64,000 nucleotides of DNA, taken from contig JACRLI010000015.1 of the NCBI GenBank assembly GCA_016235265.1, forward strand, positions 133,335 through 197,334, given 5' to 3'. The notes below the pieces were generated by a model. The model did not search any database. It had not been told where the DNA came from and saw only the letters and a list, made by a program, of their open reading frames with translations. Numbering within the stretch: the first letter of the stretch is position 1; every line of letters starts with the position of its first letter. This DNA is from Candidatus Eiseniibacteriota bacterium. GTDB taxonomy: Bacteria > Eisenbacteria > RBG-16-71-46 > JACRLI01. Position numbers and translations under genes: made by a program. Of the stretch, positions 14,316-53,326 are shown one piece after another.

Positions 14316-14726
14316 CTACCGGTCGACGATGGCCTGTCGGATCATCTTGTACTTCGCGGAGACCAGCTGGGCGATCGCGCCGTGGCGCAGCACGGTCTTC
14401 TGCAGCTCCACCATTTCGCGCTCGATGTCCACGTTGTTCACGCCGCTGCGCAAATCCGGGGAGGTGTCCACCTCCACCCGCGGCGACACGTGCCGCGCCC
14501 CGCGCGAGGCTTCCAGGTGCGCCGGGCCGTCCCCGGCCAGCTGCAGACGGTGCGGCTGCCGGGTGCGATCCTGGAGCAGCTCCTCGAACGCCACGTGCTT
14601 CGCCTGGTAGCCGGGAGTGCCCACGTTGGCGATGTTGTCCGCGGTCACCTTCTGGCGCAGCGCGGCCGCGTCGAGGCCCTGCCGCAGTCCCGGGATGCTT
14701 TCTCCGAAGAGGATCTTGTCCAGCAC
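14316..14726 (-). CDS. flgB: Flagellar basal-body rod protein FlgB
   Basis: Start re-assigned to GTG at 14726 (GGAGG 5 nt upstream). This gives MLDKILFGESIPGLRQGLDAAALRQKVTADNIANVGTPGYQAK, a classical FlgB N-terminus (compare E. coli MLDRL...). The ORF-track start at 14765 lies upstream of the sigma54 promoter core. Confidence 0.85.
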   Translation of the reverse strand: MLDKILFGESIPGLRQGLDAAALRQKVTADNIANVGTPGYQAKHVAFEELLQDRTRQPHRLQLAGDGPAHLEASRGARHVSPRVEVDTSPDLRSGVNNVDIEREMVELQKTVLRHGAIAQLVSAKYKMIRQAIVDR

Positions 14727-14756: not shown

Positions 14757-14771
14757 GCAATCCACGTGCCA
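14757..14771 (-). promoter_or_regulatory. Sigma54 (RpoN) -24/-12 promoter for the flgB...fliN operon
   Basis: Minus strand reads TGGCAC-GTGGA-TTGC (exact consensus TGGCAC-N5-TTGC); predicted TSS about 14745, 19 nt upstream of the flgB GTG. Confidence 0.75.
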
Positions 14772-14819: not shown

Positions 14820-16231
<1,412 letters not shown>

Positions 16232-16235
<4 letters not shown>

Positions 16236-17380
16236 GCGTCCTCCGGAGGCAGGGACGGCAGGGTCAGGGTGAAGCAGGCCCCGTGCGGCTTCCGGTCCCG
16301 GTACGCGAGGGCGCCGCCGTGCGACTGCGCGGCCTTGGCGGCCAGCGCCAGGCCCAACCCGGTGCCGCGCGCCTTGCCGGTGATGAACGGTTCGAACATC
16401 CGGTCGCGCACGGCGGGATCCACGCCGGGGCCGGAGTCGGAAATCGTGAGCCGGTGCGCCTCGCCCGGGATCAGGGCCACCCGCACCCGGCCGCCCCGGG
16501 GCGAGGCTTCCACCGCGTTGCGAGCCACGTTGACCACGGCCGCCTGCAGGCGCGTCGCGTCCCCGCGGGTGAATGCGGCCCCCGGTCGCTTCCACACCAG
16601 GGCCACGCCGCGCTCGCGCGCCAGCGAACCGGTCTGCACCAGCGCGGATTCCACCACCGCGCGCAGGTCCACGGGGTCCTTGCGCGGCTCGAAGGGCCGC
16701 GTGAATTCCAGGAATTCGGAGACCAGGTCCTCCAGGGCGTGGATGCCGCAGCGGATCTTCTCCGCGTAGGCCCGGCGGGGGTCGGCCGGTTCCAGCCCGC
16801 GCTCCAGCAGGTCCAGGAAGCCGGACATGCCGCCCAGGGGGTTGCGAATCTCGTGTGCCGCCACCGCGGCCACCCGTCCCAGCGCCGCCAGCGAGCGGGC
16901 GCCCTCCAGCTCCTTGCGCAGCCGCACGTCCTCGGTGCGGTCGGTCAGGATCTCGACGGCCCCCAGCGGCTCGCCGCGCACGCCGCGCACCCAGGACACC
17001 TCGGAGTCGAGGTGACCGGAATCCGGTCCCAGGTCCAGCGCCTCGCTTCGGGGTCCGCCGGCGCGCAGGCGGTCCGCGGGCGAGGGGTGGCCGGGCCACA
17101 ACTCGGCGTACGCGTGCCCCCGCGCGGCCTCGCGGCCCACACCCAGCATGCGCTCCGCGGCGTGGTTCATGCTGCGCACGCGCCCGGAGGAGTCGCTCCA
17201 CACCAGGCCCAGCGGCAGGGACTCCATCACCCGGCCGACCCACAGGTGGAAGCCCTCGGACTCCTCGCGCACGCGACGCAACCGGTCGCGCAGCACGTAC
17301 AGTTCGGCCTCGTCCTGGGCAAGGCGCAGTTCCAGCTCCGCCTGCCCGGTCCAGTCGGTCCCCGGGTGCAGCACGGTCAT
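16232..17380 (-). CDS. PAS-domain sensor histidine kinase (HisKA plus HATPase_c)
   Basis: 382 aa from ATG at 17380 (ATGA overlap with upstream gene). H-box AAVAAHEIRNPLGGMSGFLDLL; G1/G2 boxes DSGPGVDPAVRDRMFEPFITGKARGTGLGLALA; cytoplasmic, no TM. Confidence 0.88.
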
Positions 17381-18504
17381 CGGGAGGTCATCCGCGCGGC
17401 CGAGCCCGCGCGAGCGCGGGCCTGGGCCGTCCAGTAGTCGTCCGGGTGGTGCGTCTCCAGCTCCTGCAGGCGGGCGGCGGCGGCCTGCGCCCGGCCCAGC
17501 CGCGTCTCGAGCTTGGCGCACTGGTGCAAGGACCAGGGTCGCTCGGGGGCCGCGGGATACGCGGCCATGGCCTCGACGTAGGCCGCGAGCGCGTCCTCCG
17601 GTCCGGCCAGGCGGTACTGGGCGTCGGCCCACTGGAAGTACGCGGTCCGCCGCGCGTCATCCTTCGATTCCGGGTCCGGAGTGATCTGCGTGGCGCGCCG
17701 GTACCAGCGCGCCGCCTCGTCGGTGCGCCCGGTGCGATCCAGCACCCGGCCCAGCAGCAGGTCCAGCGACACCGACTCGGCGCCCAGCTGCAGCGCCCGG
17801 CGGGCGTGACCTTCCACCCCATCCGGGGCGGCATGCAGCGCCCATTCCAGGAGGGCCAGCCGCGCGTACAGCGCCGCGGCCGAGTCCGCCGACAGGAACC
17901 TGGCGCAGCTGTCGAGCGCGGCGGCGGCCGCGACGGCGTCACCGCGCGCCAGGGCGGTGCGCACCGGTGCATCCGGGGCCCGGGAGGTGACCGTGCGGGT
18001 GTCGTGCGCGCGCCGGCCGGCGACCCCCGACTTCGGGGGCGGCGCGGGCGCGCGGATCGCGGCGGGGCCTGCGGAGCGACCGCGGGCGGTCGCGGGCGCG
18101 GCGCCGGACCGCGGGCCCGCGACGGATGAAGCCGGAGTTGCGGGCGCCGGCGCGGGCCCGCCGGCCAGCAGCAGCACGCCGGCCGAGTCCCTCCAGCTCA
18201 CCCAGTACGGCGCGCTCCGGGGCAGTTCCAGGATCAGGCGCGGGTGCGCGCCATCGAGGTCGCGCACCTGGGCCCGCCGCAGGCGATTCGCGCCCGGATC
18301 CGCCTCCACCTTCGCGTCGGCGGGAAAGTCCAGCACCACGCGTGGCGGGGAGCCCAGCTCCCAGACCTTCTGCGGACGCGGCCCGCGGAAGCGCAGCACC
18401 GCGTCCCCGCCGCCGGCCCGCGCCGACGGCGCCGGCCCGCACAGCGCCGCGGCGCACGCCAGCGCCAGCAGTGCGCGCCCCGCGCCCGGGGGCGGGTGGA
18501 TCAC
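17377..18504 (-). CDS. Secreted AMIN-like plus TPR-repeat protein
   Basis: 375 aa; signal peptide MIHPPPGAGRALLALACAAALCG; AMIN-like beta domain (RVVLDFPADAKVEADP...LILELP); C-terminal TPR/Sel1-like helical repeats; translationally coupled on both sides. Confidence 0.6.
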   Translation of the reverse strand: MIHPPPGAGRALLALACAAALCGPAPSARAGGGDAVLRFRGPRPQKVWELGSPPRVVLDFPADAKVEADPGANRLRRAQVRDLDGAHPRLILELPRSAPYWVSWRDSAGVLLLAGGPAPAPATPASSVAGPRSGAAPATARGRSAGPAAIRAPAPPPKSGVAGRRAHDTRTVTSRAPDAPVRTALARGDAVAAAAALDSCARFLSADSAAALYARLALLEWALHAAPDGVEGHARRALQLGAESVSLDLLLGRVLDRTGRTDEAARWYRRATQITPDPESKDDARRTAYFQWADAQYRLAGPEDALAAYVEAMAAYPAAPERPWSLHQCAKLETRLGRAQAAAARLQELETHHPDDYWTAQARARAGSAARMTSR

Positions 18505-18815
18505 GACTTCCTCGCGGCCCGGGCGGGCCGCGGCGGTTCGAGGCGCCGCTCGATCTCGCGCGCCAGCATGGCCACGGTGTCGCGCTGCAGGCTCTCCACC
18601 TCGCGCTCCGGCAGGCCCAGGGTGCGCGCGATCTCGCCGGCCGAGAGCTCCTCGTAGTAGTGCAGCGCCAGGACCAGCCGCCGCTTCTCGTCCAGCCGCG
18701 GCAGCGTGTCCACGATCAGGCGGCGCGCGGTGCTCTGCGCGTCCGGGGTGAGCGGCGGGTGGGCCGCGGGCGATCTCCCGGGCAGCCAGCCGAGCAGGGA
18801 TTCCACGGACAACAT
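18501..18815 (-). CDS. Sigma70 region-4-only protein (truncated sigma-factor-like HTH)
   Basis: 104 aa; LDEKRRLVLALHYYEELSAGEIARTLGLPEREVESLQRDTVAMLAREIER matches sigma70 region 4.2 (-35 binding HTH). No regions 2/3. ATGA-coupled to the AMIN/TPR gene. Confidence 0.55.
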   Translation of the reverse strand: MLSVESLLGWLPGRSPAAHPPLTPDAQSTARRLIVDTLPRLDEKRRLVLALHYYEELSAGEIARTLGLPEREVESLQRDTVAMLAREIERRLEPPRPARAARKS

Positions 18816-18825
18816 CGGGTCCCTC

Positions 18826-19221
18826 CTAGGTACCGGTCCGCCGCAGGCCGTCCAGGTACTTCTGGGCGCACTGCTGGACCTGTTCCGAACTGAACGGTTT
18901 CACCAGGTAGTCCTCCGCCCCGGCCTGAAGGCTCTGGTTGCGCACCGGCTCGTCCTGCTCGCTGGTCAGCACCAGCACCGGCACGCCGGCGAAGGCGGCG
19001 GAGCCCCTCACCGCGCGCAGCAGCGAGAGACCGTCCATGTTGGGCATGTTGAGGTCGGTGAAGATGAGCGCCGTCTCCGGGTTCCGGGCCAGCTGTTCGA
19101 GGGCGTCGTGACCGTCCATCGCCTCGATCACCCGGCAACCGATCAGGCGCAGGCTGAACGCGATGAACTTGCGCGTGGTCGGGGAATCATCGACGACGAG
19201 AACCAGCTGGGACATGACCAC
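18826..19221 (-). CDS. CheY-like single-domain response regulator
   Basis: 131 aa; LVLVVDDSPTTRK...DLNMPNMDGL...LVKPF receiver-domain residues. Confidence 0.85.
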   Translation of the reverse strand: MVMSQLVLVVDDSPTTRKFIAFSLRLIGCRVIEAMDGHDALEQLARNPETALIFTDLNMPNMDGLSLLRAVRGSAAFAGVPVLVLTSEQDEPVRNQSLQAGAEDYLVKPFSSEQVQQCAQKYLDGLRRTGT

Positions 19222-19237: not shown

Positions 19238-20071
19238 CTAATCCTTGCGGTACCCGAGGCCTCGGCGAAAGGTGACCGGCCGGAACGCGCGGCTCACGCC
19301 GTGCAGCGATTCGGCCTTGCCCAGGAACAGGAACCCGCCGTCCCGCAGGCACTCGTAGAGCACCGCGGCGGCGCGCTTGCGCGAAGTCTCGGAGAAATAC
19401 ATCATCACGTTCCGGCAGAACACCGCGTCGGGCTCGGCCCGCTCCCCCGGCTCCAGCTCGAGCAGGTTCCCGGCCTCGAAGCTCACACCCTGCCTCCAGC
19501 GATCCCGCACCCGCAGCATGCCGGCGCGGTCCTCGAACAGCTGGGGCTTCACGGTTTCGGGCACGTCGCGCACCGCGGCGCCCCGGTATTCCCCGCGCCG
19601 GGCGTCGGCGACGCACCGCTCCGACAGGTCCCAACCCAGCACCTCCAGGCCCCGTTCCGACACCGCGTCGTCCTGCCCCAGCCGGTACCGCAGCGAGTAC
19701 GCCTCCTCGCCCGCCCCGCACCCCACGCTCCACACCCTCACCGGGCCTTCCCCGCCCAGCGGCGGGAGCACTTCCTCGACCAGCGCGTCCAGTTGTTCCG
19801 CCTCCCGGAAGAAGCCGCTCTCGTGGGGCGCGGCCAGGTCGCGAAGCTGGCGCAGTTCCTGCCCCGTCTCGTCGTACTTGAGTCTCAGCAGCAGGTCGTG
19901 GGCGCCCTGCGCGTCCACCGTCTTGAGCCGGCCCTGGAGCCGCTCCACCAGCAGCGGCAGCCGCGGGTCGGCGTAGTGCACGCCGGTGCTCTCGTGGATG
20001 AAGTCCCGCAGGGCCCCCCAGTCCTCGGGTGGCGCCACCAGGCGCTGCGGCGAGATCACCGGCACGAACAT
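19238..20071 (-). CDS. cheR: Chemotaxis protein methyltransferase CheR
   Basis: 277 aa; CheR N-terminal domain plus SAM-binding fold (VWSVGCGAGEEAYSL, CRNVMMYF). Confidence 0.88.
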   Translation of the reverse strand: MFVPVISPQRLVAPPEDWGALRDFIHESTGVHYADPRLPLLVERLQGRLKTVDAQGAHDLLLRLKYDETGQELRQLRDLAAPHESGFFREAEQLDALVEEVLPPLGGEGPVRVWSVGCGAGEEAYSLRYRLGQDDAVSERGLEVLGWDLSERCVADARRGEYRGAAVRDVPETVKPQLFEDRAGMLRVRDRWRQGVSFEAGNLLELEPGERAEPDAVFCRNVMMYFSETSRKRAAAVLYECLRDGGFLFLGKAESLHGVSRAFRPVTFRRGLGYRKD

Positions 20072-20437
20072 CTAGCCCGGCTCCCGGGCCAGCGCCTGCC
20101 GCACCCCCTCCACCAGCAGTTCCACGCGGAAGGGCTTCAGGAAGCACTGCACCGCGCCCGCCCCCATGACCTGGCGGACCAGCGCCGGGGTGCCGTGCGC
20201 GGTGATGGCGATCGCGGGCACGGCGCGCTTGCGCCGCGCCAGCCTGCGAATCAGGTTCACGCCCCCCAGGCCGGGCAGCCGCAGGTCGGCGATCACCAGG
20301 TCGCACGGCTCGCGCCGCAGCACCCGCAGGGCCTGTTCCGCGGAAGTCACGGTCACGGCCGCGAATCCCTCCTCCCCGAGCCGCTCCGCCAGGGCCCAGG
20401 CCGTGGCGCGCTCGTCCTCGACGATCAGAACTCTCAG
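20072..20437 (-). CDS. Response-regulator receiver-domain protein (start uncertain, possibly CTG)
   Basis: The conserved LRVLIVEDE...DLVIADLRLPGLGG...LKPF receiver fold begins about 80 nt upstream of the first canonical start (GTG at 20356). The in-frame stop is at 20501-20503. No ATG/GTG/TTG lies in the leader. Confidence 0.6.
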   Translation of the reverse strand: MRVLIVEDERATAWALAERLGEEGFAAVTVTSAEQALRVLRREPCDLVIADLRLPGLGGVNLIRRLARRKRAVPAIAITAHGTPALVRQVMGAGAVQCFLKPFRVELLVEGVRQALAREPG

Positions 20438-20505
20438 GTTGCCCCCACTCGCGTTGGCCAGCCCGCCCCGGGGAAGTCCGGATGCCAGCGTCCAGCAGCG
20501 CTAAG

Positions 20506-20520
20506 GCAATGCCTGTGCCA
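20506..20520 (-). promoter_or_regulatory. Sigma54 -24/-12 promoter upstream of the receiver-cheR-cheY-sigma_r4-AMIN/TPR-HK-RR operon
   Basis: Minus strand reads TGGCAC-AGGCA-TTGC; the in-frame stop of the receiver ORF lies just downstream, so this is the leader. Confidence 0.7.
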
Positions 20521-20666
20521 GATTTCGGGGTTGGGTGCGGGTTTGGAGGAGGGCTGTAACTGCTTGCGCGGCAAGCGGCTCAAATGCAGCGGGGGCGGCC
20601 GGTTTTGCCGCCCCCCGGAAAATGCTTCCGCCCCGGCGGGTGGGACCCGCCCGGGTCGGCAGATTC

Positions 20667-25623: not shown

Positions 25624-25944
25624 TCAGGCCGCCTGGTCCATGGACCGGTGCATGCCGAAGACGTGCGAAAGCTGGGTCAGCTCGAACACTTCCTGCACCT
25701 GCGGCTGCAGCGAGAGCAGGCGCAGCGTGGCGCGCCGCTCCCGGCAGCGCTTGAGGCAGGTGATGAGCGAGGCCAGCCCCGCGCTGTTGACGAACGGCAC
25801 CGCCCGCAGGTCGATGGCCACGTGGAGCCCGGACTGCGCCAGCGCGGAGATCTCCTCCACGAGGAGGTTGCCGGCCTCGCCGTCCAGGCGTCCCGAGACC
25901 TCCAGGACGACTCCGTTGGGCACTTGCGATTTCTTCAGTGTCAT
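25624..25944 (-). CDS. STAS-domain anti-sigma-factor antagonist (RsbV/SpoIIAA-like)
   Basis: 106 aa from ATG at 25944 (AAGGAG RBS). ...DLRAVPFVNSAGLASLITCLKR... has the conserved phosphorylatable Ser context of SpoIIAA-family proteins. Confidence 0.8.
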   Translation of the reverse strand: MTLKKSQVPNGVVLEVSGRLDGEAGNLLVEEISALAQSGLHVAIDLRAVPFVNSAGLASLITCLKRCRERRATLRLLSLQPQVQEVFELTQLSHVFGMHRSMDQAA

Positions 25945-25975
25945 CTCCCGCTCCTTGGGGTTTCGGGGTTGCCGG

Positions 25976-26443
25976 TCACCCGGCCTTGCGCATTTCCATT
26001 GCGCCGGGGCGCGTCTTCCACATCCGGACCCGGTTTTCACCCGGGCCGCGGACCACCTCCACGTTGTCCATCAGCCGCAGCATCAACGCCACCCCGCGCC
26101 CCCCCTCCAGCATCTCGCGGTTGCGTTCGGTGACGGACTGCAGGCGGCCCACGTCGAAGCCGTTCCCGCGATCCACCACGTCGAACCACACGCCGTCCTC
26201 GACGTCGCTCACCACCAGCTCCACGGTGCGGTCGGCCCGCCGGCTGTTGCCGTGCGTGATGGCGTTGTGCATCGCCTCGTTGACCGCCAGGTCGATCCGG
26301 AAGGTGTCCCTCCGGCTCCACCCGCTGGCGCGGAGGAATGTCCGCAGACCGTGGCTCACCCACGGCAGCATGGCCGGGTCGCTGGGCAGTTCCACCCGGA
26401 ACCAGTGTTGCGCCGCTCCCAGGCGGCCGGCGTCGCGGTTCAC
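25976..26443 (-). CDS. Anti-sigma regulatory factor / serine protein kinase (RsbW/SpoIIAB-like HATPase_c)
   Basis: About 155 aa from GTG at 26443 (GTGA overlap with the phosphatase stop). N-box AVNEAMHNAITHG, G-box VVDRGNGFD, GRGVALM motif. Confidence 0.75.
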   Translation of the reverse strand: MNRDAGRLGAAQHWFRVELPSDPAMLPWVSHGLRTFLRASGWSRRDTFRIDLAVNEAMHNAITHGNSRRADRTVELVVSDVEDGVWFDVVDRGNGFDVGRLQSVTERNREMLEGGRGVALMLRLMDNVEVVRGPGENRVRMWKTRPGAMEMRKAG

Positions 26444-27726
26444 TCCGCCCTCCCCACCAGCACGGTCAGGTCGTCCGAGACGCCCCCGGGCCCCGCGTAC
26501 AGCCGGACCTCCTCCACGATGCGCGCGGCCAGCTCCTTCACCGGCAGCCCGCGCGCGGCGCGCACGGTGGCCAGCAGCCGTTCCATCCCGAAGAGCGAGT
26601 CGTCGGGGCCGTGCGCCTCGGTCACCCCGTCGGTGTAGAACACCAGGAGATCGTCCGGCGCCAGCGTCACCTCGCCGGCCACGTAGGTCATCTCCGGGAA
26701 CTGGCCCAGCACGCCGCCCCGGGCGGTGAGCCAGGCCGGCTCGCCCTCGCGCGGCAGCCACAGCGCCGGGCAGTGCCCCGCGTTGGCGTAGCGAAAGGTC
26801 CGCGTGGCGGCTTCGTACAGCCCGTAGAAGAGCGTCACGAACACGGATGCGTAGCGCTCGGTGTCCTCGCACAGCGCCAGGTTGACGCCGCGCACCGCGC
26901 CCGCCGGGTCCGAGTGCAGCGCCGCCTCGCGGCGCACCAGGCTTCTCGTGGCCACCATGAACAGCGCCGCGGGCACGCCCTTGTCGGAGACGTCCGCCAC
27001 CACCACCCCCGCCGCGCCCCCCGGGCCGCGCACGAAATCGAAGTAGTCGCCCCCCACCTTGCCCATCGGGAAGTACGCGGTGGCCCAGCGGATGCCGGTG
27101 CCCTCCGGCTCGCGGCCGGGCAGCAGCGCCATCTGGACCTGCCGGGCGATGCCCAGCTCCCGCTCGAGCGCCTGCTTCTCGAGGTCCACCTGGTGCAGCC
27201 GGGCGTTCTCGATGGCCACGGTGGCCAGGCCCGCCAGCGCGCCCAGGCTGTCTGCGGCCGCGGCATCCAGGCCCTCGTAGGCCAGGTTGGCGATCACCAG
27301 CGCGCCGAGGGCGTGACCCTTGTGCCGCAGCGGAACCGCGACCAGCGACTCCAGGCTCACGCCCTGCGGCACGCTCTGGAAGCGCGGGTCGTGCAGGCAA
27401 TCCGGCGACCAGACCATCTCCCCGGTCCGCGTGACGCACTCGGGAACGGTCTCGCCTCCCTGGAGCCGCAGTTGCTCCAGCACGTCCCCTTCCAGGCCCC
27501 ATGCCACCCGCGCGTGCGGGGTCTCGGCCTCCAGCCACAGGCAGCCCACTTCGGCGCCCGCCATGTGCAGGGCCGCGTCCATCAGGGTGCTGAGGATCTG
27601 GTCCCGGTCGAAGGTGGAGGTGAGCAGCGCGGCCACATCCGTGAGTTCCCGGATGCGCGCCAGGCCCAGCTCCAGCTCCGCGCGGTCGTCCACGGCCGGC
27701 GCGGCCACCTTGATCGCCTGGAGCAC
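26440..27726 (-). CDS. GAF-domain PP2C-type serine phosphatase (RsbU/SpoIIE-like)
   Basis: 428 aa; N-terminal GAF; C-terminal PP2C/SpoIIE domain with metal-binding GGDYFDF...VADVSDKGVPAALFM...YTDGVTE. Confidence 0.85.
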   Translation of the reverse strand: MLQAIKVAAPAVDDRAELELGLARIRELTDVAALLTSTFDRDQILSTLMDAALHMAGAEVGCLWLEAETPHARVAWGLEGDVLEQLRLQGGETVPECVTRTGEMVWSPDCLHDPRFQSVPQGVSLESLVAVPLRHKGHALGALVIANLAYEGLDAAAADSLGALAGLATVAIENARLHQVDLEKQALERELGIARQVQMALLPGREPEGTGIRWATAYFPMGKVGGDYFDFVRGPGGAAGVVVADVSDKGVPAALFMVATRSLVRREAALHSDPAGAVRGVNLALCEDTERYASVFVTLFYGLYEAATRTFRYANAGHCPALWLPREGEPAWLTARGGVLGQFPEMTYVAGEVTLAPDDLLVFYTDGVTEAHGPDDSLFGMERLLATVRAARGLPVKELAARIVEEVRLYAGPGGVSDDLTVLVGRAE

Positions 27727-27748
27727 CGGCGCCCTCCCCCGCGGGCCG

Positions 27749-28612
27749 TCAGGCGGCCTGCGGGACCTCCGCGTCCGGCGTGCCCATCACTTCCTCCGCC
27801 TGCTTCCATTCCTTCTGGAACTCGACGGCCAGGTCCGCCGCGCGCTCGAAGGGCACGGTGGCCGCCTGCCACAGCGTGGCGTCCACGTCCGCCGCGGCCC
27901 GGCCCGCGTCCAGCGCGTGGGCCAGGGAATCCGCCAGCGCCACCAGGTGCACCAGCGGTTGGTGCTGCGCGTCCGCAGCGGCGGGTGAGTGGTGGTGAGT
28001 GATGGCCGCCACGATGACGTCGGGGAGCTTCCACTTGGTCGCCAGCCATCCACCCACCTCGCCATGCGAGGCACCCAGGAACTCCCGCTCGGCGTCGGAC
28101 GCGGAGTTCTGCCGCTCCTTCGCCGACGCCAGGGCCTCCTCGTATTCGACCGTGGCCACCACGTCGAGCACCAGCTTGCCCAGGTCGTGGACCAGGCCCG
28201 CGGACATCGCGGCTTCGCTGTCGCGGCCCACCGCGCGGGCCAGCACCCGGCCGCCCACGCCCACACCCAGCGAGTGCCGCCAGAACTCCTGGGGCTGGAA
28301 CGTCTTCGCCCCCGCGCCCGCGATCATGCGGTGCACGGAGGCGGACAGGGCCAGGCTGCGGATGGTGTTGAAGCCGAGCACCAGGGCGCACTGGGGCAGC
28401 GAGACCATCCCGTTGCGGCGGCCGAAGTACGCGGAGTTGGCCAGGCGCAGCATCCGGGCGGCGAGCGCCGGCTCCTGGCTGATCAGCTCGTTGAGCCGCG
28501 ACACGGAGGACTTGGGGTCGTCCACCGCCGCGATGATCTTGGTGACCACCACGGGGAGCGACGGCAGATTGGGAGTGCGCTCCACCTTCTGCTGGAGTTC
28601 GGCGAGTAGCAT
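27749..28612 (-). CDS. HDOD-domain signalling protein
   Basis: 287 aa; HDOD family (IIAAVDDPKSSVSRLNELISQEPALAARMLRLANSAYFG...LVHDLGKLVL...ITHHH). Confidence 0.8.
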   Translation of the reverse strand: MLLAELQQKVERTPNLPSLPVVVTKIIAAVDDPKSSVSRLNELISQEPALAARMLRLANSAYFGRRNGMVSLPQCALVLGFNTIRSLALSASVHRMIAGAGAKTFQPQEFWRHSLGVGVGGRVLARAVGRDSEAAMSAGLVHDLGKLVLDVVATVEYEEALASAKERQNSASDAEREFLGASHGEVGGWLATKWKLPDVIVAAITHHHSPAAADAQHQPLVHLVALADSLAHALDAGRAAADVDATLWQAATVPFERAADLAVEFQKEWKQAEEVMGTPDAEVPQAA

Positions 28613-28721
28613 TCGGGGAACTCTCCGAGGCCGGGGGCCTGGTGAAGGAGACTCTGGCTTTCAGGCGCCCCGGGGGCGCCCCGCACCGGCTCGGCCGGGT
28701 GCTCCGGTTCCGCGCACGGTC

Positions 28722-29042
28722 CTAGTGGGCCGGCTTGCGGAACGCGCTCAGGAGGGCCTCGACGATGGAGCCCCGGACCTCGGGACGCTCGTAGTAGCCC
28801 TCCTGGACGCGCTGCCGCGCCTGCTGCACCCGCTCCTCCCGGACATCCGGCACGTCCGCCGCCGCCCGCTTCACGGCCACCACGGCCTCGTGCACCCGCA
28901 GCTGGTCGCGGCCCTCCTCGGAGATGTCAATCTCGTCCGAGGACGGCCGGTCCGGCTTGCGGGAGGCGTCGCTGGCGGAAGCCTTGCGCGGGGGCTGGCT
29001 TCCCTCGGCGGCTCGGAACCGGTCGATCGGCGGAATCGGCAT
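28722..29042 (-). CDS. flgM: Anti-sigma28 factor FlgM
   Basis: 106 aa from ATG at 29042. C-terminal VREERVQQARQRVQEGYYERPEVRGSIVEALL matches the FlgM sigma28-binding helices. Confidence 0.75.
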   Translation of the reverse strand: MPIPPIDRFRAAEGSQPPRKASASDASRKPDRPSSDEIDISEEGRDQLRVHEAVVAVKRAAADVPDVREERVQQARQRVQEGYYERPEVRGSIVEALLSAFRKPAH

Positions 29043-29104
29043 GCTGGCTCTCTCCCGGGCGCTCGCGCCCGCGGGTGCGGTGAGTGTCGGGTTCGGCTTC
29101 GGCT

Positions 29105-29431
29105 TCAGGCGCTGCGCCGGCGCACGGGGTCTTTTCCCGCGTACCGGGAAGCGCATCGCTCCTGCATCTCCAGCGATTCCAGCTCGCGGGCCACCCGGTC
29201 CTGCTCCGTCACCACGGCGCGGTGGCAGAGCGCGAGCATCCGGGTGGCCGCCTCGGCCCAGCGCCTCGGCTCCGGGGCCGGGGCGCCGGCCGCGCGGAGG
29301 GCCCGGACGTGCTCATCGCACTCGGCGCCCGCCCGCGCGGCGGCCTGGAAGTCCATGCTCCGGAGAGCGGACCTCAGGCGCCGGGCGGAATCAAACAGTT
29401 CACGGGCCGGGTGGCGGGAAGTCTCAGGCAA
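29105..29431 (-). CDS. Hypothetical helical protein between flaG and flgM
   Basis: 108-aa ORF (MDFQAAARAGAECDEHVRALRAAG...), predicted helical. It sits where a chaperone-type gene is often found, but no family was recognised. Confidence 0.4.
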   Translation of the reverse strand: MPETSRHPARELFDSARRLRSALRSMDFQAAARAGAECDEHVRALRAAGAPAPEPRRWAEAATRMLALCHRAVVTEQDRVARELESLEMQERCASRYAGKDPVRRRSA

Positions 29432-32643: not shown

Positions 32644-32784
32644 TGGGAGATGACTCCTTGTGGTGCTTCACCATCCGTGGCGAAGCGGGTTTCCATACCC
32701 GAGGGTCTCGCAAGATCCCTCTGCGTTCGGGGATCCCATCGCCGGGCCGAGCTCCTCACCGGGGATCCAACCGTCTGGACTGGG

Positions 32785-32812
32785 TTTTCGGCATTACTCG
32801 CAGGAACTTTAG
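32785..32812 (-). promoter_or_regulatory. Sigma28 (FliA) promoter for fliC
   Basis: Minus strand reads TAAAGTT-N-GCCGAAAA with an exact 15-nt spacer between TAAA and GCCGAAAA (consensus TAAA-N15-GCCGATAA); about 140 nt upstream of the fliC ATG. Confidence 0.75.
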
Positions 32813-32937: not shown

Positions 32938-35829
32938 TCAGGCGGCTGCCCGCCCGGCCAGCGAGGGATCCGCGGCCAGGGCGCGCTCGTACGCCCCGGC
33001 GGCTTCGTCCTCGCGCCCCGCGGCCAGCAGCGCCAGGGCGTACTGCGACAGCAGCTGCGCGTCCGAAGCGTGCTGGGGCGTGAGCCTCTCGAACACCTTG
33101 AGACTCTCCGCCACGCGCCCCGCTTCCCGCAGCGCCACCGCACGCAGGAACTCGGTGTGCGGGTCGCCGCTGTCCTCGCGGAAGAGCTCCTCGAGCAATT
33201 CCAGCGCCTCGCCGGGCAGGTGGGCCCGGATCCGGGCGGCCGCCACGCGCGTGCGCAGTTCCCGCGGCGCCCCGACCACGCCCAGCGCGGCCAGCTCCAG
33301 GTCCCGCCCCTCGCGTTCCATCTGCTCGGCGATCCGCAGCGTGCACTGCCACGCGTTGTGCCGCGCGGGCTGAAGACCCGGGTCCAGCGACAGGGCGCGG
33401 TCGAAGGACTGCAGGGCCTCGCCGTAGCGTCCCGACTGGTACAGGGCGTTGCCCAGGTTGTAGCGGGCCAGCGCGGACTCCGGCTGCAGTTCCGCCGCGC
33501 GCATGTATTCGCGCACGGCCTCCCCGAAGCGGCCCAGGTAGTAGAGGCAGTTTCCGTGGTCCAGGCGCAGCGGGCCCTCGTCCAGGCTCTCCTCGCATGC
33601 CAGGCCCTGTCCCGAGGCCAGCAGCCTCCCCAGCAACTCCGCCGCGACCTGGTAGTCGCGCCCCATGAACTCGATGCCCGCGCGCAGGTAGGTCACCAGC
33701 GCGCTGTTCGGGCGGGCGGCCTCGGCCTCGTCCAGGTGGGAGCGGGCGGTCTCCCGGTTGCCCTCCGCGAGCGCGATCTGCGCCAGCTTGACGTGCGCCA
33801 GCGACAGGGCCTCGGGCGGCAGCGAGCGCCCGTGCAGCGAGGCCTCCAGCGGGATCACCGCGTCGGCGTTGCGTCCCAGCGCGAAGAGGGTCACGCCCAG
33901 ATGGAACAACAGGAACCGGTCCCCCGGACGTTCCGCGATCTCCCGGTGCAGCAGTCTCAGGTTGCGCTCCTGCTTGACGCGCAGCGTCTGCGCGTCCAGG
34001 CCGTAACCCGCGTGCAGGATGCGGATGTTGCTCCGCGCCAGCCGCGCCCCCCCCCGCACCAGCGAGGGAAGCACCTGCTCGTGCACCCGGCCCTCGAAGG
34101 CCACGCCCGGGAGCTTGCGGAACACGCGGCAGTAATGGTGGGACACCCCGCTCACCGCCTCGCCGTCGCGCATGCGGTTGGCGATCACCACCTCGGCCGC
34201 GTCCCAGCGCCCGCCGCGGAGCAGGGCCCGGAGTTCGTCCACGGAATCGGGGTCCAGCTCCTCGTCCGCATCCAGCACCAGCACCCACGGGCCCCGGGCG
34301 TGGGACAGCGCCAGGTTGCGCGGCGCGGAGAAGTCATCGTCCCAGGTGGTCGTGATCACCGCGGCGCCCATCGCGCGGGCCAGGTCGGGCGTGCCGTCCA
34401 CCGAGCCGGTGTCCACGACCACGATCTCATCAGCCACGCCGCGCACGCTGGCCAGCGCGCGCTCCAGCGAAGGCCGCGCGTCCCGCACGATCATGCACAC
34501 GCTCAGGTCCGCCCCGGTGACGCGGCTGCCGGAGACCAGCTCATCCTCGTCCATGGTCTCCTGCAACCGCAGCAGCTCGGCGTTTCCCGGCACGTGGGCC
34601 GCGCCCGACGCCAGCGCGGCGCGCGCCTCGTGGGGCCGGCCCAGCCCCATCAGCACGCGGGCCAGGGCCAGGTGCCCTTCGGGCAGGTGCGGTGTGAGCC
34701 GGGTGGCCTTCTCCAGGTGGGCCCGGGCGCTCTCCAGCTCCCCGGCCACCTCATCCAGCGACGCCAACTCCAGCAGCGCCTCCGCGGAGTTGGGCTGCAG
34801 GCGCAGCGCCGCCTCCAGGTGGGCGCGGGCGCGCGCCGGGTAGCCGCGGATCCGCTCGCACAGGGCCAGCTGCACGCGCACGTGCACCGGCTCGGCGTGG
34901 AAGTCCATCACCGCGTCGCTGGGCGGGGGCGGGGATTCCAGCAGCGAGGTCAGGATTTCCGCCGCGCGGGTGGGGTCGCCCGAGCGGCGGGCGGCCTCCG
35001 CCCGCAGCAACATCCCGCACTGCGTCCGGTCGTCCTCGCCGATCGCCTCCAGGGCCTCGGCGTTTCGCCCCGTCTCCAGGGCGCAGATGCACAGGTTCCA
35101 GTGCGCCTGCTGCAGGAACTCCGCTGGCAGCGGCGCCTCGAGCAGCCTGCGGAACAGGCCCCGGGCGCGCTCGTACTCGCCCATTGCCATCAGCGCGTTG
35201 GCGAGGTTGCGTTGCACCATGGGATCGTCGGAGCGCAGCCGCGCCTCCTCCTCCACGATGGCCAGGTTCCGCGCGCGGCGGGCCGGCTCGCGCTGCGGGT
35301 CGGCGTAACCGAGGTGGCGGATCACCACCGGGACGCGCTGGGCCGCCGCCGCCAGGGGCCCGTCCGGCCCGATCACCTGCTCGTGGAGCGCTCCCTCGAA
35401 GCGCACTCCCGGGAGGCGGCGGAAGACGCGGGGATAGTAGTGGGACAGCCACACTCCGGAATGGCGGTGCCGGGCCTCGCTCTCGATCCGCAGGCACATC
35501 GCCGGGAGGTACTCATCGGCATTTTCCAGGAACCGGCGCAGCCGCGCGCCGTTGAAGAAGTCGATGCGCTCGTCGGCGTCCAGGTACAGCACCCAGTCCC
35601 CGGTCGCCTGCGCCAGCGACGCGTTCCGTGCGGCGGCGAAATCGCCGGTCCACGCGAACCCGGACACCCGCGCGCCGGCGTCCCTCGCGATCTGCGCGGT
35701 GCGGTCGGTGGAGCCGGTGTCCACGACGATCATCTCGTCCACGAACTCGGAGGCCATCGCGAGGCACTCGCGCATGTGGACCTCCTCGTTCTTGACGATC
35801 ATGCACAGCGAAAGCCGGACCTCGGGCAC
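32938..35829 (-). CDS. Tandem-duplicated GT2 glycosyltransferase-TPR protein (two GT2 plus TPR modules), 963 aa
   Basis: Two copies of the family-2 glycosyltransferase DxD core (LSLCMIVKNEE...VVDTGSTDRT...LYLDADE and LSVCMIVRDARP...VVDTGSVDGT...LVLDADE), each followed by TPR repeats. Confidence 0.8.
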   Translation of the reverse strand: MPEVRLSLCMIVKNEEVHMRECLAMASEFVDEMIVVDTGSTDRTAQIARDAGARVSGFAWTGDFAAARNASLAQATGDWVLYLDADERIDFFNGARLRRFLENADEYLPAMCLRIESEARHRHSGVWLSHYYPRVFRRLPGVRFEGALHEQVIGPDGPLAAAAQRVPVVIRHLGYADPQREPARRARNLAIVEEEARLRSDDPMVQRNLANALMAMGEYERARGLFRRLLEAPLPAEFLQQAHWNLCICALETGRNAEALEAIGEDDRTQCGMLLRAEAARRSGDPTRAAEILTSLLESPPPPSDAVMDFHAEPVHVRVQLALCERIRGYPARARAHLEAALRLQPNSAEALLELASLDEVAGELESARAHLEKATRLTPHLPEGHLALARVLMGLGRPHEARAALASGAAHVPGNAELLRLQETMDEDELVSGSRVTGADLSVCMIVRDARPSLERALASVRGVADEIVVVDTGSVDGTPDLARAMGAAVITTTWDDDFSAPRNLALSHARGPWVLVLDADEELDPDSVDELRALLRGGRWDAAEVVIANRMRDGEAVSGVSHHYCRVFRKLPGVAFEGRVHEQVLPSLVRGGARLARSNIRILHAGYGLDAQTLRVKQERNLRLLHREIAERPGDRFLLFHLGVTLFALGRNADAVIPLEASLHGRSLPPEALSLAHVKLAQIALAEGNRETARSHLDEAEAARPNSALVTYLRAGIEFMGRDYQVAAELLGRLLASGQGLACEESLDEGPLRLDHGNCLYYLGRFGEAVREYMRAAELQPESALARYNLGNALYQSGRYGEALQSFDRALSLDPGLQPARHNAWQCTLRIAEQMEREGRDLELAALGVVGAPRELRTRVAAARIRAHLPGEALELLEELFREDSGDPHTEFLRAVALREAGRVAESLKVFERLTPQHASDAQLLSQYALALLAAGREDEAAGAYERALAADPSLAGRAAA

Positions 35830-35859
35830 GGTGTTCCTCCTCGATGCGCGCGGCGGCCG

Positions 35860-36657
35860 CTACGCCGCCCGCTGCGCCGTCTCCAGCCGCCGGAGCAGGC
35901 TGGGCAGCAGCGCCAGCTCCGGGTTGCGCCATTTCTGCTGGAACAGGGCGCGGTTGCGTTCGATCAACGCCATGTAGTCCACGCCCTCGGCGCGGAATGT
36001 GGCGCTGCCCTCGTGGTGCACGAAGCAGCTTTCCACCACCAGGCACTTCAGGCCCAGCAGGCGGGTCCTCAGGCAGTAGTCGTCGTCCTCGAAGTTGCCG
36101 ATCCCGAAGCGCTCGTCCCATTCGCCCACGGCGTCGGCCGTCTCCCGGGTGAAGGCGAGGCAGAAACCCACCAATCGCTCCACCTCGCGCACCGCGCCGA
36201 AGCGCGTGGCGGCCAGGGTGCGGGCCACGCCGTCGGGCCCGCCGCTGCGCGCGTAGTCCACCGGGACGCACTGCGCACCGGAGCAGTTGTTGGTGAGCGG
36301 GCCCGCCAGCCCCGCGCCGGGCAACGCCAGCGCCTCGTGCAGCTCCTCCAGCCAGCCCGGAGTGACCTGCACGTCGCTGTTGAGCAGCACCAGCGTCCCG
36401 CCGCGGGAAGCGTCCACCAGCTGGTTGACGGCAGCCGCGAAGCCGCGGTTCCCGGGATTCACGATCAGGCGCACGTCGCGGCCGGCGAGGTCCTCGCGCA
36501 CGTCCGCGCGGGAGCCGTTGTCCACGATCACGATCTCGTGGGGCTGCCGGGTGTGGCGGCCGATGCTCTCGAGAGCCAGCCGCAGCAGCGGCAGCTGGTT
36601 CCATACCGGCACCAGGATGGACGTGAGCCGGGGTTCGATTCCGCGTTCAACCGGCAA
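35860..36657 (-). CDS. GT2-family glycosyltransferase (probable TTG start overlapping upstream stop)
   Basis: About 265 aa; TSILVPVWNQ...IVIVDNGS...LNSDV...FGIGNFEDDDYCLR family-2 GT motifs. Confidence 0.7.
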   Translation of the reverse strand: MPVERGIEPRLTSILVPVWNQLPLLRLALESIGRHTRQPHEIVIVDNGSRADVREDLAGRDVRLIVNPGNRGFAAAVNQLVDASRGGTLVLLNSDVQVTPGWLEELHEALALPGAGLAGPLTNNCSGAQCVPVDYARSGGPDGVARTLAATRFGAVREVERLVGFCLAFTRETADAVGEWDERFGIGNFEDDDYCLRTRLLGLKCLVVESCFVHHEGSATFRAEGVDYMALIERNRALFQQKWRNPELALLPSLLRRLETAQRAA

Positions 36658-39529: not shown

Positions 39530-40538
39530 CTCGGCCTCCGTCCGGTCGCCTTTCGTGGCCGGCCGCCTCGCGGCGGGCCAGCTCGTCCAGCGCGTACACC
39601 GTGCGCTCCGCCTCTTCCAGCGTCACCGCGGCCTCGCACGGGAAGCTCAGCGCGCGCCGCAGGTACTCCACCGCGCCGGGAAAGCTCCGCCGCACGTGAG
39701 GATCGTCGGGGTCCAGCCCCAGGGCCAGCCGCAGCTGCGGCCGCGCCACGCGCACGCCGCGCGCGTGCAGCTGGCGCGCCCATGCCGCGTTGGGATAGGC
39801 CGTCGAGCCGAACAGCACCCGCACCGTGTAGCGCGGCCACGTGCCGCGGGTGCCGCGCGCGTACTCGGGCAGGCGGACGCCATCCAGCGGGCCCCAGGCG
39901 GATTCCCAGAGCGCGGCCAGGCGGCGCTGCCCCGCGACGCGCGCGGGAAGGGCCGCCAGGAATTCCTCCAGCGCCGGATCGGCCGGCGCCCCCACCTCAA
40001 CGGAGGGCGGGGGCAGCTTGCGACCCGCCTCCTCCACCGTGCCCGCGTCGGCCGAGGCGATGCGCGCCGCGCGGTCGGGACCGTGCAGCAGCACCGCGTC
40101 GGCGTGGGCCCCCGGAAGGAAGCCCTGGGCCATCGCCCCCAGCGACTCGCGCACCTCCTCGACCACCACCGCGTCACGGCGCCGGGCCAGGGCGGCCAGT
40201 TGCGGTCCGTCCGGCGGCAGGCCGTCCACGTCGGCGCACCACAGGGCCTCGAAGCCCCGGCCTTCGCGGGCCACCGAGGACACATCCAGGCGCCCGGTGT
40301 CGGGATCCACATCCAGCGGGACCACGTCACAACCGCCCCGCCTCAGAGCCTCGGCGGCCTGCGTGCAGCCCCACACCGGCAGCGCCACGCGCGCGCCGGG
40401 CCCCAGGCCCAGCGTGCGCGACAGCGCCTGCGCGGCGGTGCGGAACGGGACCGGTCGGGTCAGCGCGACCACCTCCAGGTGGTCCTCCAGTCCCTCGGGC
40501 AGCCCCGCGGGGCGGATCGGCTGGCGCAGCGCGCTCAC
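39519..40538 (-). CDS. DegT/DnrJ/EryC1-like (PLP-dependent sugar aminotransferase-like) protein, possibly degenerate
   Basis: 339 aa from GTG at 40538 (GTGA overlap); VALPVWGCTQAAEALRRGGCDVVPLDVDPDTGRLD resembles the DegT motif (PSFTF.A...G..PVFVDID..T.NID); assignment is tentative. Confidence 0.45.
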   Translation of the reverse strand: MSALRQPIRPAGLPEGLEDHLEVVALTRPVPFRTAAQALSRTLGLGPGARVALPVWGCTQAAEALRRGGCDVVPLDVDPDTGRLDVSSVAREGRGFEALWCADVDGLPPDGPQLAALARRRDAVVVEEVRESLGAMAQGFLPGAHADAVLLHGPDRAARIASADAGTVEEAGRKLPPPSVEVGAPADPALEEFLAALPARVAGQRRLAALWESAWGPLDGVRLPEYARGTRGTWPRYTVRVLFGSTAYPNAAWARQLHARGVRVARPQLRLALGLDPDDPHVRRSFPGAVEYLRRALSFPCEAAVTLEEAERTVYALDELARREAAGHERRPDGGRDAG

Positions 40539-44103: not shown

Positions 44104-44161
44104 GGCTCCTCGCGCGGAAATGGAAGACGGATGGCCGGGCGGGCCGGACATCCTGCGGAGA

Positions 44162-44176
44162 GCAACCGATGTGCCA
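44162..44176 (-). promoter_or_regulatory. Sigma54 -24/-12 promoter for the glycosyltransferase island
   Basis: Minus strand reads TGGCAC-ATCGG-TTGCT (exact consensus), about 58 nt upstream of the 44103 ATG. Confidence 0.75.
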
Positions 44177-44313
44177 TGCGGGAAGGCAATCGAAGCGAGG
44201 GGCTATCTTACGGAATGCCTTGAGGAAGCGCCGGGGCCGGGAAATGGCCACCGGGCGGAACGGAAAAGGGCGCCGGCGGATAAGCCACCGGGCGCCCAGA
44301 ATCTGGCCGAGGA

Positions 44314-53311: not shown

Positions 53312-53326
53312 CAACGGACGTGCCAC
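53312..53326 (-). promoter_or_regulatory. Sigma54 -24/-12 promoter for flgF-flgG-flgA-flgH-flgI-flgJ
   Basis: Minus strand reads TGGCAC-GTCCG-TTGC (exact consensus), about 50 nt upstream of the flgF start. Confidence 0.72.

Follow-up and report, generated by a model that had tools for sequence, protein, structure and literature searches.

The 64,000-nucleotide (nt) stretch of Candidatus Eiseniibacteriota DNA analysed here (contig JACRLI010000015.1, positions 133,335 to 197,334; hereafter the window, with positions counted from its first letter) encodes a protein of 104 amino acids (aa) that consists of sigma factor region 4 only. This protein, which we call r4, is a member of a conserved, uncharacterised family of stand-alone sigma-28-type region-4 proteins that are encoded in a sigma-54 flagellar regulatory module. 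Judging from the residues that it has kept and lost, r4 probably acts by binding another protein and not DNA. Our leading reading, which we hold tentatively and at somewhat less than even confidence, is that r4 is a protein-binding mimic of sigma-28 region 4 with the anti-sigma-28 factor FlgM as its foremost candidate partner; both the partner and the direction of the effect are what we infer from sequence comparison. The window has a G+C content of ~72%, and nearly all genes of the region lie on the minus strand and form one large flagellar supercluster. The gene in question is the following.

18501-18815, minus strand: r4 gene, stand-alone FliA/WhiG-type sigma region-4 protein, 104 aa (Pfam, AlphaFold2 (AF2), Foldseek and profile search)

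The r4 open reading frame (ORF) is a real gene under purifying selection. It starts with ATG, 7 nt behind an AGGAGG motif, and the stop codon of the preceding CheY-like gene, 10 nt before the r4 start, is part of the r4 ribosome-binding site (TAGGAGGgacccgATG). The G+C content at third codon positions is 0.90, the ratio of nonsynonymous to synonymous substitution rates (dN/dS) is ~0.36 between r4 and its orthologue in the closest relative (locus L001) and 0.29 between two distant family members, and the length of the homologues is conserved, which argues that r4 is not a chance ORF. The earlier note on this DNA had itself raised the possibility that the ORF is the C-terminal remnant of a frameshifted full-length sigma factor. 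That r4 is such a remnant of a frameshifted or truncated sigma gene, or else a chance GC-rich ORF, is refuted by the data and has practically no probability left. As a remnant might, r4 shows homology to the final 65 residues of FliA, but the complete CheY-like gene upstream, read in a different frame, takes up the space that regions 2-3 would need, r4 has a start codon and ribosome-binding site of its own, and ~30 homologues, all 101-132 aa long, share the same N-terminal peptide from Met1; the selection and codon-position values just given point the same way.

The only Pfam families matching the 104-aa protein above gathering scores were Sigma70_r4_2 (8e-10) and Sigma70_r4 (8e-9), with the Sigma70_r4 matches spanning residues 32-82 of 104, and no Pfam match to region 2 or region 3 was found in it. 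NCBIfam sigma models matched r4 solely via their C-terminal 60-75 positions and far below their cut-offs. AF2 predicted a four-helix sigma-4 fold with a predicted local distance difference test (pLDDT) score of 76, and the PDB matches of this model in Foldseek were isolated sigma-4 domains and sigma/anti-sigma complexes. The proposal that the protein comprises region 4 alone, without core-binding regions, is thus borne out. With regions 2 and 3 absent, neither sigma-type binding to core RNA polymerase nor promoter opening is possible for r4, and the label 'sigma-70 family RNA polymerase sigma factor', under which the identical protein is publicly annotated, is wrong by domain content. The 31 residues preceding the domain comprise the conserved peptide, which reads MLSVESLLGW in the window protein, and a linker; AF2 confidence is ~70 for the former and below 50 for the latter, and the protein ends in a basic C-terminal tail. 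No REC domain was found within r4 by Pfam, and none of the six Pfam families that it matched at E ≤ 0.1 is GerE/LuxR (PF00196). The gene pair does not have the arrangement of a sigma factor of the extracytoplasmic function (ECF) type and its anti-sigma factor either: r4 has no sigma-2, and the protein encoded downstream, which has only ~10 residues before its hydrophobic segment, has no match to an anti-sigma domain.

Sequence comparison places the domain in the FliA/WhiG (sigma-28) type. When the r4 family profile was searched against PDB sequences, the top seven matches were FliA/WhiG proteins (4e-13 to 8e-9), with SigF, ECF sigma factors and RpoS ranking below them, and the best full-length sigma relatives inspected, from a search of 1.8 billion representatives, were FliA-like proteins of 250-263 aa that carry LALYYYEEL. 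The sigma-28 signature RLVLALxYYEEL is present in r4 itself. Residues were mapped by HMMER alignment to Pseudomonas aeruginosa FliA, with contact residues taken from PMC12784957; a by-eye alignment to E. coli sigma-70 R584-Q589 was set aside, the sigma-70 row being unreliable because of an insertion. In P. aeruginosa sigma-28, the sigma-4 residues contacting FlgM are L187, I191, L200, A203, L204, Y206, E209 and L210, and the L204R substitution weakens FlgM binding ~200-fold (PMC12784957). The equivalents in r4 (I34, L38, L47, A50, L51, Y53, E56 and L57) are identical or conservative at all eight positions, which are largely kept family-wide. E. coli SigE, by comparison, differs at four of the eight, with M, T, E and G at the L200, A203, Y206 and E209 positions.

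The residues that read promoter DNA present a different picture. The -35 base-reading residues of P. aeruginosa sigma-28, S224 and Q228 (PMC12784957), are replaced by R71 and S75 in the window protein, and within the family the S224 position is occupied by R, P, D, G, S, E or A and the Q228 position by S, T, R, E, A or D. The FliA recognition motif SESRVSQIH is lost. Across 19 family members the recognition helix carries a mean net charge of -1.6. The corresponding value is +0.1 for seven region-4 sequences of the FliA type, of which five come from full-length FliA-like sigma factors and two are short proteins bearing the FliA recognition motif, and +3.5 for two proteins of an unrelated r4-only family of 80 aa described below. 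In the close subfamily, the N-terminal peptide, helix 4.1, the first helix of the helix-turn-helix (HTH), and, in the last helix, V73, T80 and L84 are invariant; the base-reading positions of the recognition helix are not, and a wider alignment of 15 sequences has zero invariant recognition-helix positions. The groove of sigma-28 region 4 accepts either the beta-flap tip helix of RNA polymerase or the C-terminal helix of FlgM (1RP3, 9WSF). With base-reading residues lost and the groove conserved, we favour protein contacts over the reading of -35-type DNA.

The r4 gene belongs to a cluster of seven genes, in which neighbours overlap or are separated by gaps of 0-25 nt, that lies behind one sigma-54-type promoter and is followed by a second. 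In the order of transcription, the elements are as follows.

20505-20520, minus strand: sigma-54-type promoter TGGCACaggcaTTGC (weighted consensus scan, 19.5/21)
20075-20437, minus strand: receiver-domain (REC) gene, ~121 aa (Pfam Response_reg, 88.5 bits from CTG 20437)
19238-20071, minus strand: CheR-type methyltransferase, 277 aa (Pfam CheR, 6e-41; matching position in a JGI contig described below)
18826-19215, minus strand: CheY-like single-domain response regulator, 129 aa (Pfam Response_reg, 3e-26)
18501-18815, minus strand: r4
17377-18504, minus strand: secreted AMIN-like/TPR protein, 375 aa (Pfam TPR_2, AF2, hhalign)
16232-17380, minus strand: soluble PAS histidine kinase (kinase 2), 382 aa (Pfam PAS_4, HisKA, HATPase_c)
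14820-16235, minus strand: NtrC-type sigma-54-dependent response regulator (regulator 2), 471 aa (Response_reg, Sigma54_activat 3.7e-66, AAA_lid_14, HTH_8)
14757-14771, minus strand: sigma-54-type promoter TGGCACgtggaTTGC, directly upstream of flgB (scan score 20/21)
14316-14725, minus strand: flgB, first gene of the flgB-flgC-fliE-fliF... operon (likely start GTG 14725 after GGAGG)

The earlier note had described r4, the TPR gene, the kinase gene and the regulator gene as a four-gene unit coupled by ATGA at every junction. Their coordinates (18815-18501, 18504-17377, 17380-16232 and 16235-14820, all minus) are right, and the genes are indeed coupled and upstream of flgB; they form only the distal part of the seven-gene cluster, and of the three 4-nt start/stop overlaps two are ATGA, whereas the junction at 18504-18501 is GTGA, with a GTG start. 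The first promoter, TGGCACaggcaTTGC, lies in the intergenic gap past the stop (20667) of an upstream sigma-54 regulator, regulator 1, and ahead of the REC gene, and L001 has the same sigma-54-type element, GTGGCACAGGCATTGCC, at the matching place. At the second promoter, the start of the longest flgB ORF (GTG 14765) falls inside the sigma-54-type element, and automatic FlgB calls of ~149-154 aa are probably too long. Further high-scoring sigma-54-type sites (TGGCAC-N5-TTGC) were seen on the minus strand at 53325, upstream of flgF, at 44176, at the start of a glycosyltransferase gene, and at 2603, inside motB and ahead of fliL.

A last class of flagellar promoter is represented upstream of fliC, where a sigma-28-type element, CTAAAGTTC-N11-GCCGAAAA, occupies ~32784-32811 on the minus strand. 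The corresponding anti-sigma factor is encoded nearby.

28725-29156, minus strand: FlgM anti-sigma-28 factor (Pfam FlgM, 28.0 bits versus a cut-off of 25)

The C-terminal helix of this FlgM reads ...SIVEALLSAF. Together, the sigma-28-type promoter before fliC and the FlgM gene indicate that a FliA/FlgM circuit exists in this organism, and promoter-like sites and gene content suggest what appears to be a three-tier hierarchy of sigma-54 with regulator 1, sigma-54 with regulator 2, and sigma-28 with FlgM.

Two GC-rich near-palindromes lie upstream of the sigma-54-type promoters. The first (GCTTGC-CGC-GCAAGC, 20562-20576, minus strand) is ~40-55 nt upstream of TGGCACaggcaTTGC, and the second (TGCCGCCC-G-GGGCGGCA, 14877-14893, minus strand) is ~105-120 nt upstream of TGGCACgtggaTTGC; both share TGCCGC/GCGGCA half-sites and are possible activator binding sites. 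They could also be operators for r4 itself, if r4 were a small sequence-specific DNA-binding regulator with a new specificity, aided by its basic C-terminal tail and comparable to a GerE/LuxR solo, that autoregulates the operon or co-regulates the flgB promoter. We regard this as unlikely, though of all the alternatives it deserves the most serious attention. Its HTH fold is intact, the C-terminal tails of the family are rich in Arg/Lys, and the 80-aa r4-only proteins with their basic recognition helix suggest that stand-alone r4 DNA binders probably exist. In r4, though, the recognition helix has a net negative charge and is less conserved than any other part of the domain, both sigma-28 base-reading positions are replaced and not conserved, and the parts that are invariant, namely the N-terminal peptide and helix 4.1, are not known to face DNA in sigma factors. 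The lack of a GerE/LuxR match in Pfam at the threshold given above also counts against such a regulator, and binding by the two NtrC-type activators would account for the palindromes just as well.

The r4 family extends beyond the window. In its ~30 members, the N-terminal peptide is nearly invariant, reading MLSVESLLGW in the close subfamily and MLSxE(T/S)L in distant members, and Arg/Lys-rich C-terminal tails occur across the family; no characterised family was found to match the protein. A JGI contig of 8259 bp repeats the order kinase 1, regulator 1, REC, CheR, REC, r4, TPR, PAS kinase, regulator, flgB, with a TPR protein of 378 aa, a regulator of 471 aa and the same 4-nt overlaps. A second version of the module was recovered from two distant Eisenbacteria loci (L006 and L011) and two unassigned contigs (L007 and L012). 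It consists of r4 (105-110 aa); a REC protein with a degenerate CheB-like domain; an AMIN-TPR protein, encoded by one gene or by two, with a signal peptide, an AMIN domain, a long acidic linker and a TPR domain; a kinase, again soluble; and a sigma-54 regulator. The REC/CheB-like gene, which follows r4 in these loci (L006, 8321-9238; L011, 9321-10235; L007, 8315-9274; L012, 8131-9090), fuses REC to a weakly matching CheB-methylesterase-like domain (Pfam 4e-5 and 2e-4) that is probably degenerate. The window lineage has no such gene and instead has REC, CheR and CheY upstream of r4; r4 adjoins a REC-encoding gene in every locus recovered. The junction between r4 and the next gene is a TTGA or ATGA overlap in L006, L011 and L007 and a 3-nt gap in L012. 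The gene set therefore recurs in relatives, including distant loci, and the AMIN/TPR protein, which had seemed an odd partner for a cytoplasmic kinase, turns out to be a conserved member of the module.

Sigma-54-like elements of the form TGGCA(C/T)-N5-TT(G/T/A)(A/C), with a weak -12, precede r4 by ~45-65 nt from its start in the distant loci. In L011, flgB-flgC-fliE-fliF lie downstream of the module, past one reversed FapA gene, and FlgM is also encoded in L006 and L011. L007 and L012 have a type IV pilus/type II secretion system-like cluster upstream of the module; a flagellar neighbourhood is possible for them as well, because the regulator gene is cut short by the contig end in both and the kinase that they encode shares 57% identity with the L006/L011 kinase. 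A profile search of genome and metagenome contigs with the r4 family alignment matched only the L001/L002 contig. No fusion of r4 to REC, AAA+ or other domains was found, the long matches checked being ECF sigma factors with C-terminal extensions, and a search for literature on region-4-only sigma (FliA) paralogues or Eisenbacteria flagellar regulation returned nothing relevant. The contig DATKKS010000184.1, which carries L001/L004, is labelled Candidatus Saccharimonadales; with 75% G+C and synteny to the Eisenbacteria flagellar regulatory cluster, it is probably mis-binned.

The searches also returned a separate, abundant r4-only family of 80 aa (P0199, P0189 and related proteins; L008-L010), which lacks the MLS motif and whose recognition helix is strongly basic. 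In the three contigs inspected, its genes stand alone near ruvCAB; one member carries a Nitrospinae annotation. These matches were set apart from the r4 family by the missing N-terminal motif, the basic recognition helix and the ruvCAB neighbourhood, and such a protein is probably a true small DNA-binding protein.

Returning to the window protein, the function that we tentatively propose runs as follows. r4 would be made from the sigma-54-dependent operon together with the receivers, CheR, the AMIN-like/TPR protein, the PAS kinase and the NtrC-type activator. Its sigma-28-type hydrophobic groove, formed by helix 4.1 and the LALxYYEEL helix, would accommodate an amphipathic partner helix, for which the C-terminal helix of FlgM is the best candidate. 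As a sigma-28 mimic, r4 could then buffer, titrate or escort FlgM, and this capture would tie the sigma-28/FlgM checkpoint to the sigma-54 tier of the hierarchy. Control would likely be exerted by the N-terminal peptide, which is invariant, and by the CheY-like receiver next to r4, with a putative role for phosphorylation. We rank FlgM mimicry first because the sigma-28-specific residues A50, Y53 and E56 are kept, FlgM is encoded in the same supercluster and a sigma-28-type promoter is present.

The earlier note had suggested that r4 might be a decoy for FlgM or for the RsbW-like kinase, both of which are encoded within the window. The decoy idea, though not proven, gains some support from the FliA-type domain, the retained FlgM contacts and the loss of the -35 readers. 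RsbW-type kinases are not known to target region 4, and for this reason the RsbW-like kinase is the least likely decoy target.

Several points weigh against FlgM as the partner. Most FlgM-contact residues are also part of the hydrophobic core or beta-flap groove of any sigma-28 region 4, and their retention may reflect only fold and ancestry. The Glu of P. aeruginosa FlgM that bonds Y206 is, as judged by eye, a Phe in the window FlgM, and the Arg/Lys-rich tails of the family would suit nucleic-acid binding. Unless it were under some control of its own, a decoy produced along with early flagellar genes would set sigma-28 free too soon. Finally, no FlgM gene is in view in L007 and L012, whose contigs end inside the regulator gene. 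The N-terminal peptide of r4 loosely resembles the C-terminal helix of FlgM (LSVESLLGW and SIVEALLSAF, respectively), a likeness too short to evaluate and recorded here as a lead only.

A more elaborate version of FlgM capture joins r4 to its neighbouring receiver. Here, r4 and the receiver would constitute a split, phosphorylation-controlled switch that resembles PhyR but is built on FliA region 4 and that, once the sigma-54 tier is active, captures FlgM and frees FliA without FlgM secretion; we give this rather little credence. About equally improbable, in our judgement, is that r4 serves as an adaptor inside the module, binding the receiver (CheY-like here, REC/CheB-like in distant loci) or the sigma-54 activator, either by supplying a split response regulator with its output half or by acting on the NtrC-type protein as an anti-activator or co-activator. 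The constant proximity to a REC-encoding gene (10 nt after the CheY-like gene in the window, an overlap or 3 nt elsewhere) speaks for such an adaptor, as do the completeness of the CheY-like protein, with all phospho-acceptor residues and a Tyr106 equivalent, and the N-terminal peptide, which is invariant, amphipathic and modelled more confidently than the linker behind it. This peptide also shows a loose likeness to the CheY-binding N-terminus of FliM (LSQEEIDALM), again too short to evaluate and a lead only; only LS.E.(L/I) is shared, and the EIDAL core is missing. Among the matches checked r4 is never fused to REC or AAA+ domains, and an adaptor role leaves the retention of the FliA-specific residues A50, Y53 and E56 unexplained.

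The conserved groove admits one more type of partner, the beta-flap tip of RNA polymerase. By binding it, r4 could compete with region 4 of sigma-70 or sigma-28, an anti-sigma-like or appropriator-like action that would favour sigma-54 transcription, or it could attach to the sigma-54 holoenzyme as an accessory subunit. What is conserved in r4 is the very groove into which sigma-4 takes the flap-tip helix, and r4 is always co-transcribed, by prediction, with sigma-54 activators behind sigma-54-type promoters. However, one domain by itself would hardly dislodge a multi-domain sigma factor from core polymerase, and no precedent is known for a sigma-70-family domain acting on the sigma-54 holoenzyme; we consider this quite unlikely. 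Capture of FlgM by r4 remains our leading, tentative reading.

Among the neighbouring genes of the cluster, the first has an anomalous start. Translated from CTG 20437, the REC gene covers positions 1-110 of the 111-position Response_reg profile, and an ATC or CTG close by could serve as the start instead. No ATG, GTG or TTG gives the full domain; starting at the first of them (20356) would cost the protein both the acidic pocket and strand 1. Alignment with the L001 orthologue begins at 20422, and the window reads GTC there. The anomaly could reflect a non-canonical start, a point mutation in the start codon or an assembly error. The CheY-like protein, for which the best NCBIfam match is CheY (3.5e-22, below the model cut-off), carries DD, D55, T85, Y104 and K107, that is, the full phospho-acceptor set and the Tyr106 equivalent, and is 77.5% identical to the 129-aa REC protein preceding r4 in L001.

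The AMIN-like/TPR protein is composed of a signal-peptide-like N-terminus, a beta-rich domain (~38-115), a Pro/Ala linker (117-174) and a TPR domain (179-374). Read from the sequence, with no predictor used, its N-terminus resembles a Sec signal (R10, ALLALACAAAL, ARA|G). Pfam supports the TPR part of the earlier assignment (TPR_2, 29.3 bits versus a cut-off of 27; 6.9e-7), and AF2 models it as 11 helices with pLDDT >90; in Foldseek it matched generic TPR proteins only, with E 1.7e-6 to YrrB, OGT-TPR and PilF. The AMIN part fared less well. AF2 placed six strands at 46-115 with low confidence and left the linker disordered, and AMIN (PF11741) had no Pfam match in the window protein (E ≤ 0.1 for the protein, E ≤ 1 for the N-domain). 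The N-domains of orthologues scored 19.8 and 18.0 bits against the AMIN profile, just under the cut-off of 20.5, and their profile matched the AMIN region of Myxococcus PilQ with E 0.0088. hhalign related the window N-domain to the orthologue AMIN domain (probability 68%, E 4.7e-5), and the window protein is collinear with the 695-aa AMIN+TPR protein of L007. The AMIN assignment of the window protein is therefore weak. The protein may be a co-expressed structural or scaffold protein.

The assignments of the PAS kinase and the sigma-54 regulator were confirmed by Pfam (PAS/HisKA/HATPase_c and REC/Sigma54_activat/HTH_8, respectively). No transmembrane-like segment was found in the kinase (maximum 19-residue Kyte-Doolittle average 0.84), nor a membrane segment in the kinases at the matching position of related loci. 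Regulator 2 has the GAFTGA motif, as read in translation, and is 50-51% identical to the same-position regulator in L006 and L011.

The supercluster around the module runs in the following order: flgF, flgG, flgA, flgH, flgI, flgJ-like, flgN, flgK, fliW and glycosyltransferases; then fliC, fliS, fliD, flaG and flgM; then HDOD, GAF-SpoIIE phosphatase, RsbW-like kinase, STAS, HEAT-repeat protein, kinase 1 and sigma-54 regulator 1; then the seven-gene cluster from REC to regulator 2; and then flgB, flgC, fliE, fliF, fliG, fliH, fliI, on to fliM and fliN. Directly upstream of kinase 1/regulator 1 lies a partner-switching set (25627-28660, minus strand), which includes the following genes.

25979-26443, minus strand: RsbW-like kinase
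25627-25944, minus strand: STAS protein
within the same set: HEAT-repeat protein, 790 aa

The whole set (HDOD, GAF-SpoIIE, RsbW-like, STAS and HEAT-repeat) is also kept in L001, and no cognate sigma factor for it is visible within the window. An ORF at 26040-26363 was rejected as the RsbW-like gene, having no Pfam match; the gene is 25979-26443, in another frame. Between fliW and fliC, three very large glycosyltransferase-TPR fusion proteins (~900-990 aa; 32941-44202, minus strand) are encoded, which are possibly a flagellin glycosylation system. The fliC leader contains GGA motifs near the ribosome-binding site, in keeping with the presence of fliW in the same region; CsrA genes were noted only in L006 and L011, two related loci, with no scan for CsrA made in the window.

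Flagellar hierarchies are the textbook example of assembly-coupled gene expression, and their FliA/FlgM checkpoint is thought to be controlled mainly by FlgM secretion. If r4 does bind FlgM, a separately encoded FlgM-binding FliA domain made from the sigma-54 tier would add a control by sigma mimicry, which is so far known mainly from PhyR in Alphaproteobacteria, and r4 would illustrate how a sigma domain can be put to new use as a regulator. If the split-mimic switch were true, it would amount to a signalling-based bypass or tuning of the hook-basal-body checkpoint. Whatever the partner, a family of ~105-aa proteins combining MLSVE(S/T)L with a sigma-28-type region 4 is currently misannotated as sigma factors. 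That the host organisms are uncultured Eisenbacteria-like bacteria limits the value of these findings.

Among known flagellar systems, FlgS/FlgR of Campylobacter and Helicobacter, FleS/FleR of Pseudomonas and FlrB/FlrC of Vibrio resemble the window module in having a soluble PAS kinase and an NtrC-type activator. As in FlgS/FlgR-type systems, the window pair adjoins rod/hook genes with a sigma-54-type promoter, and sigma-28/FlgM forms the last tier; the window has a second pair, kinase 1/regulator 1, upstream. None of these loci is known to contain a sigma-4-only gene, a CheR/CheY set or an AMIN/TPR gene within the operon, and regulator 2 scores far below the NCBIfam cut-offs for FlgR (276 bits, cut-off 750) and FlbD (373 bits, cut-off 750). 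The TPR protein is, like the periplasmic TPR motor scaffolds PflA/PflB, MotX and FlcA, predicted to be secreted and is encoded among flagellar genes, with no sequence relationship to these proteins found; the AMIN domain of PilQ/AmiC is borderline in its orthologues and undetected in the window protein. GerE/LuxR solo HTH proteins are small and stand-alone, as is r4, and their fold is akin to that of sigma region 4. DNA binding by GerE takes place as a dimer, whereas r4 has no GerE/LuxR Pfam match and an acidic, variable recognition helix.

The closest profile relative of r4, with the same four-helix fold, is sigma-28 region 4 as seen in its complex with FlgM (PDB 1RP3, 9WSF; PMC12784957). Compared with FliA, r4 lacks regions 2 and 3 and the 3/4 linker, adds the invariant N-terminal peptide MLSVE(S/T)L and a basic tail, and has its gene in a sigma-54 regulatory operon and not at the fliA locus. 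In concept, the nearest precedent is the PhyR/NepR/EcfG system of Alphaproteobacteria. PhyR has a degenerate, receiver-linked sigma-like domain that does not read promoters and titrates an anti-sigma factor. It is one polypeptide, in which ECF-derived sigma-2-like and sigma-4-like parts are fused to REC, whereas r4 is a sigma-28-type sigma-4 alone and the REC proteins near it are encoded by separate genes. r4 is thus not a member of the PhyR family, and the two are parallel in concept only.

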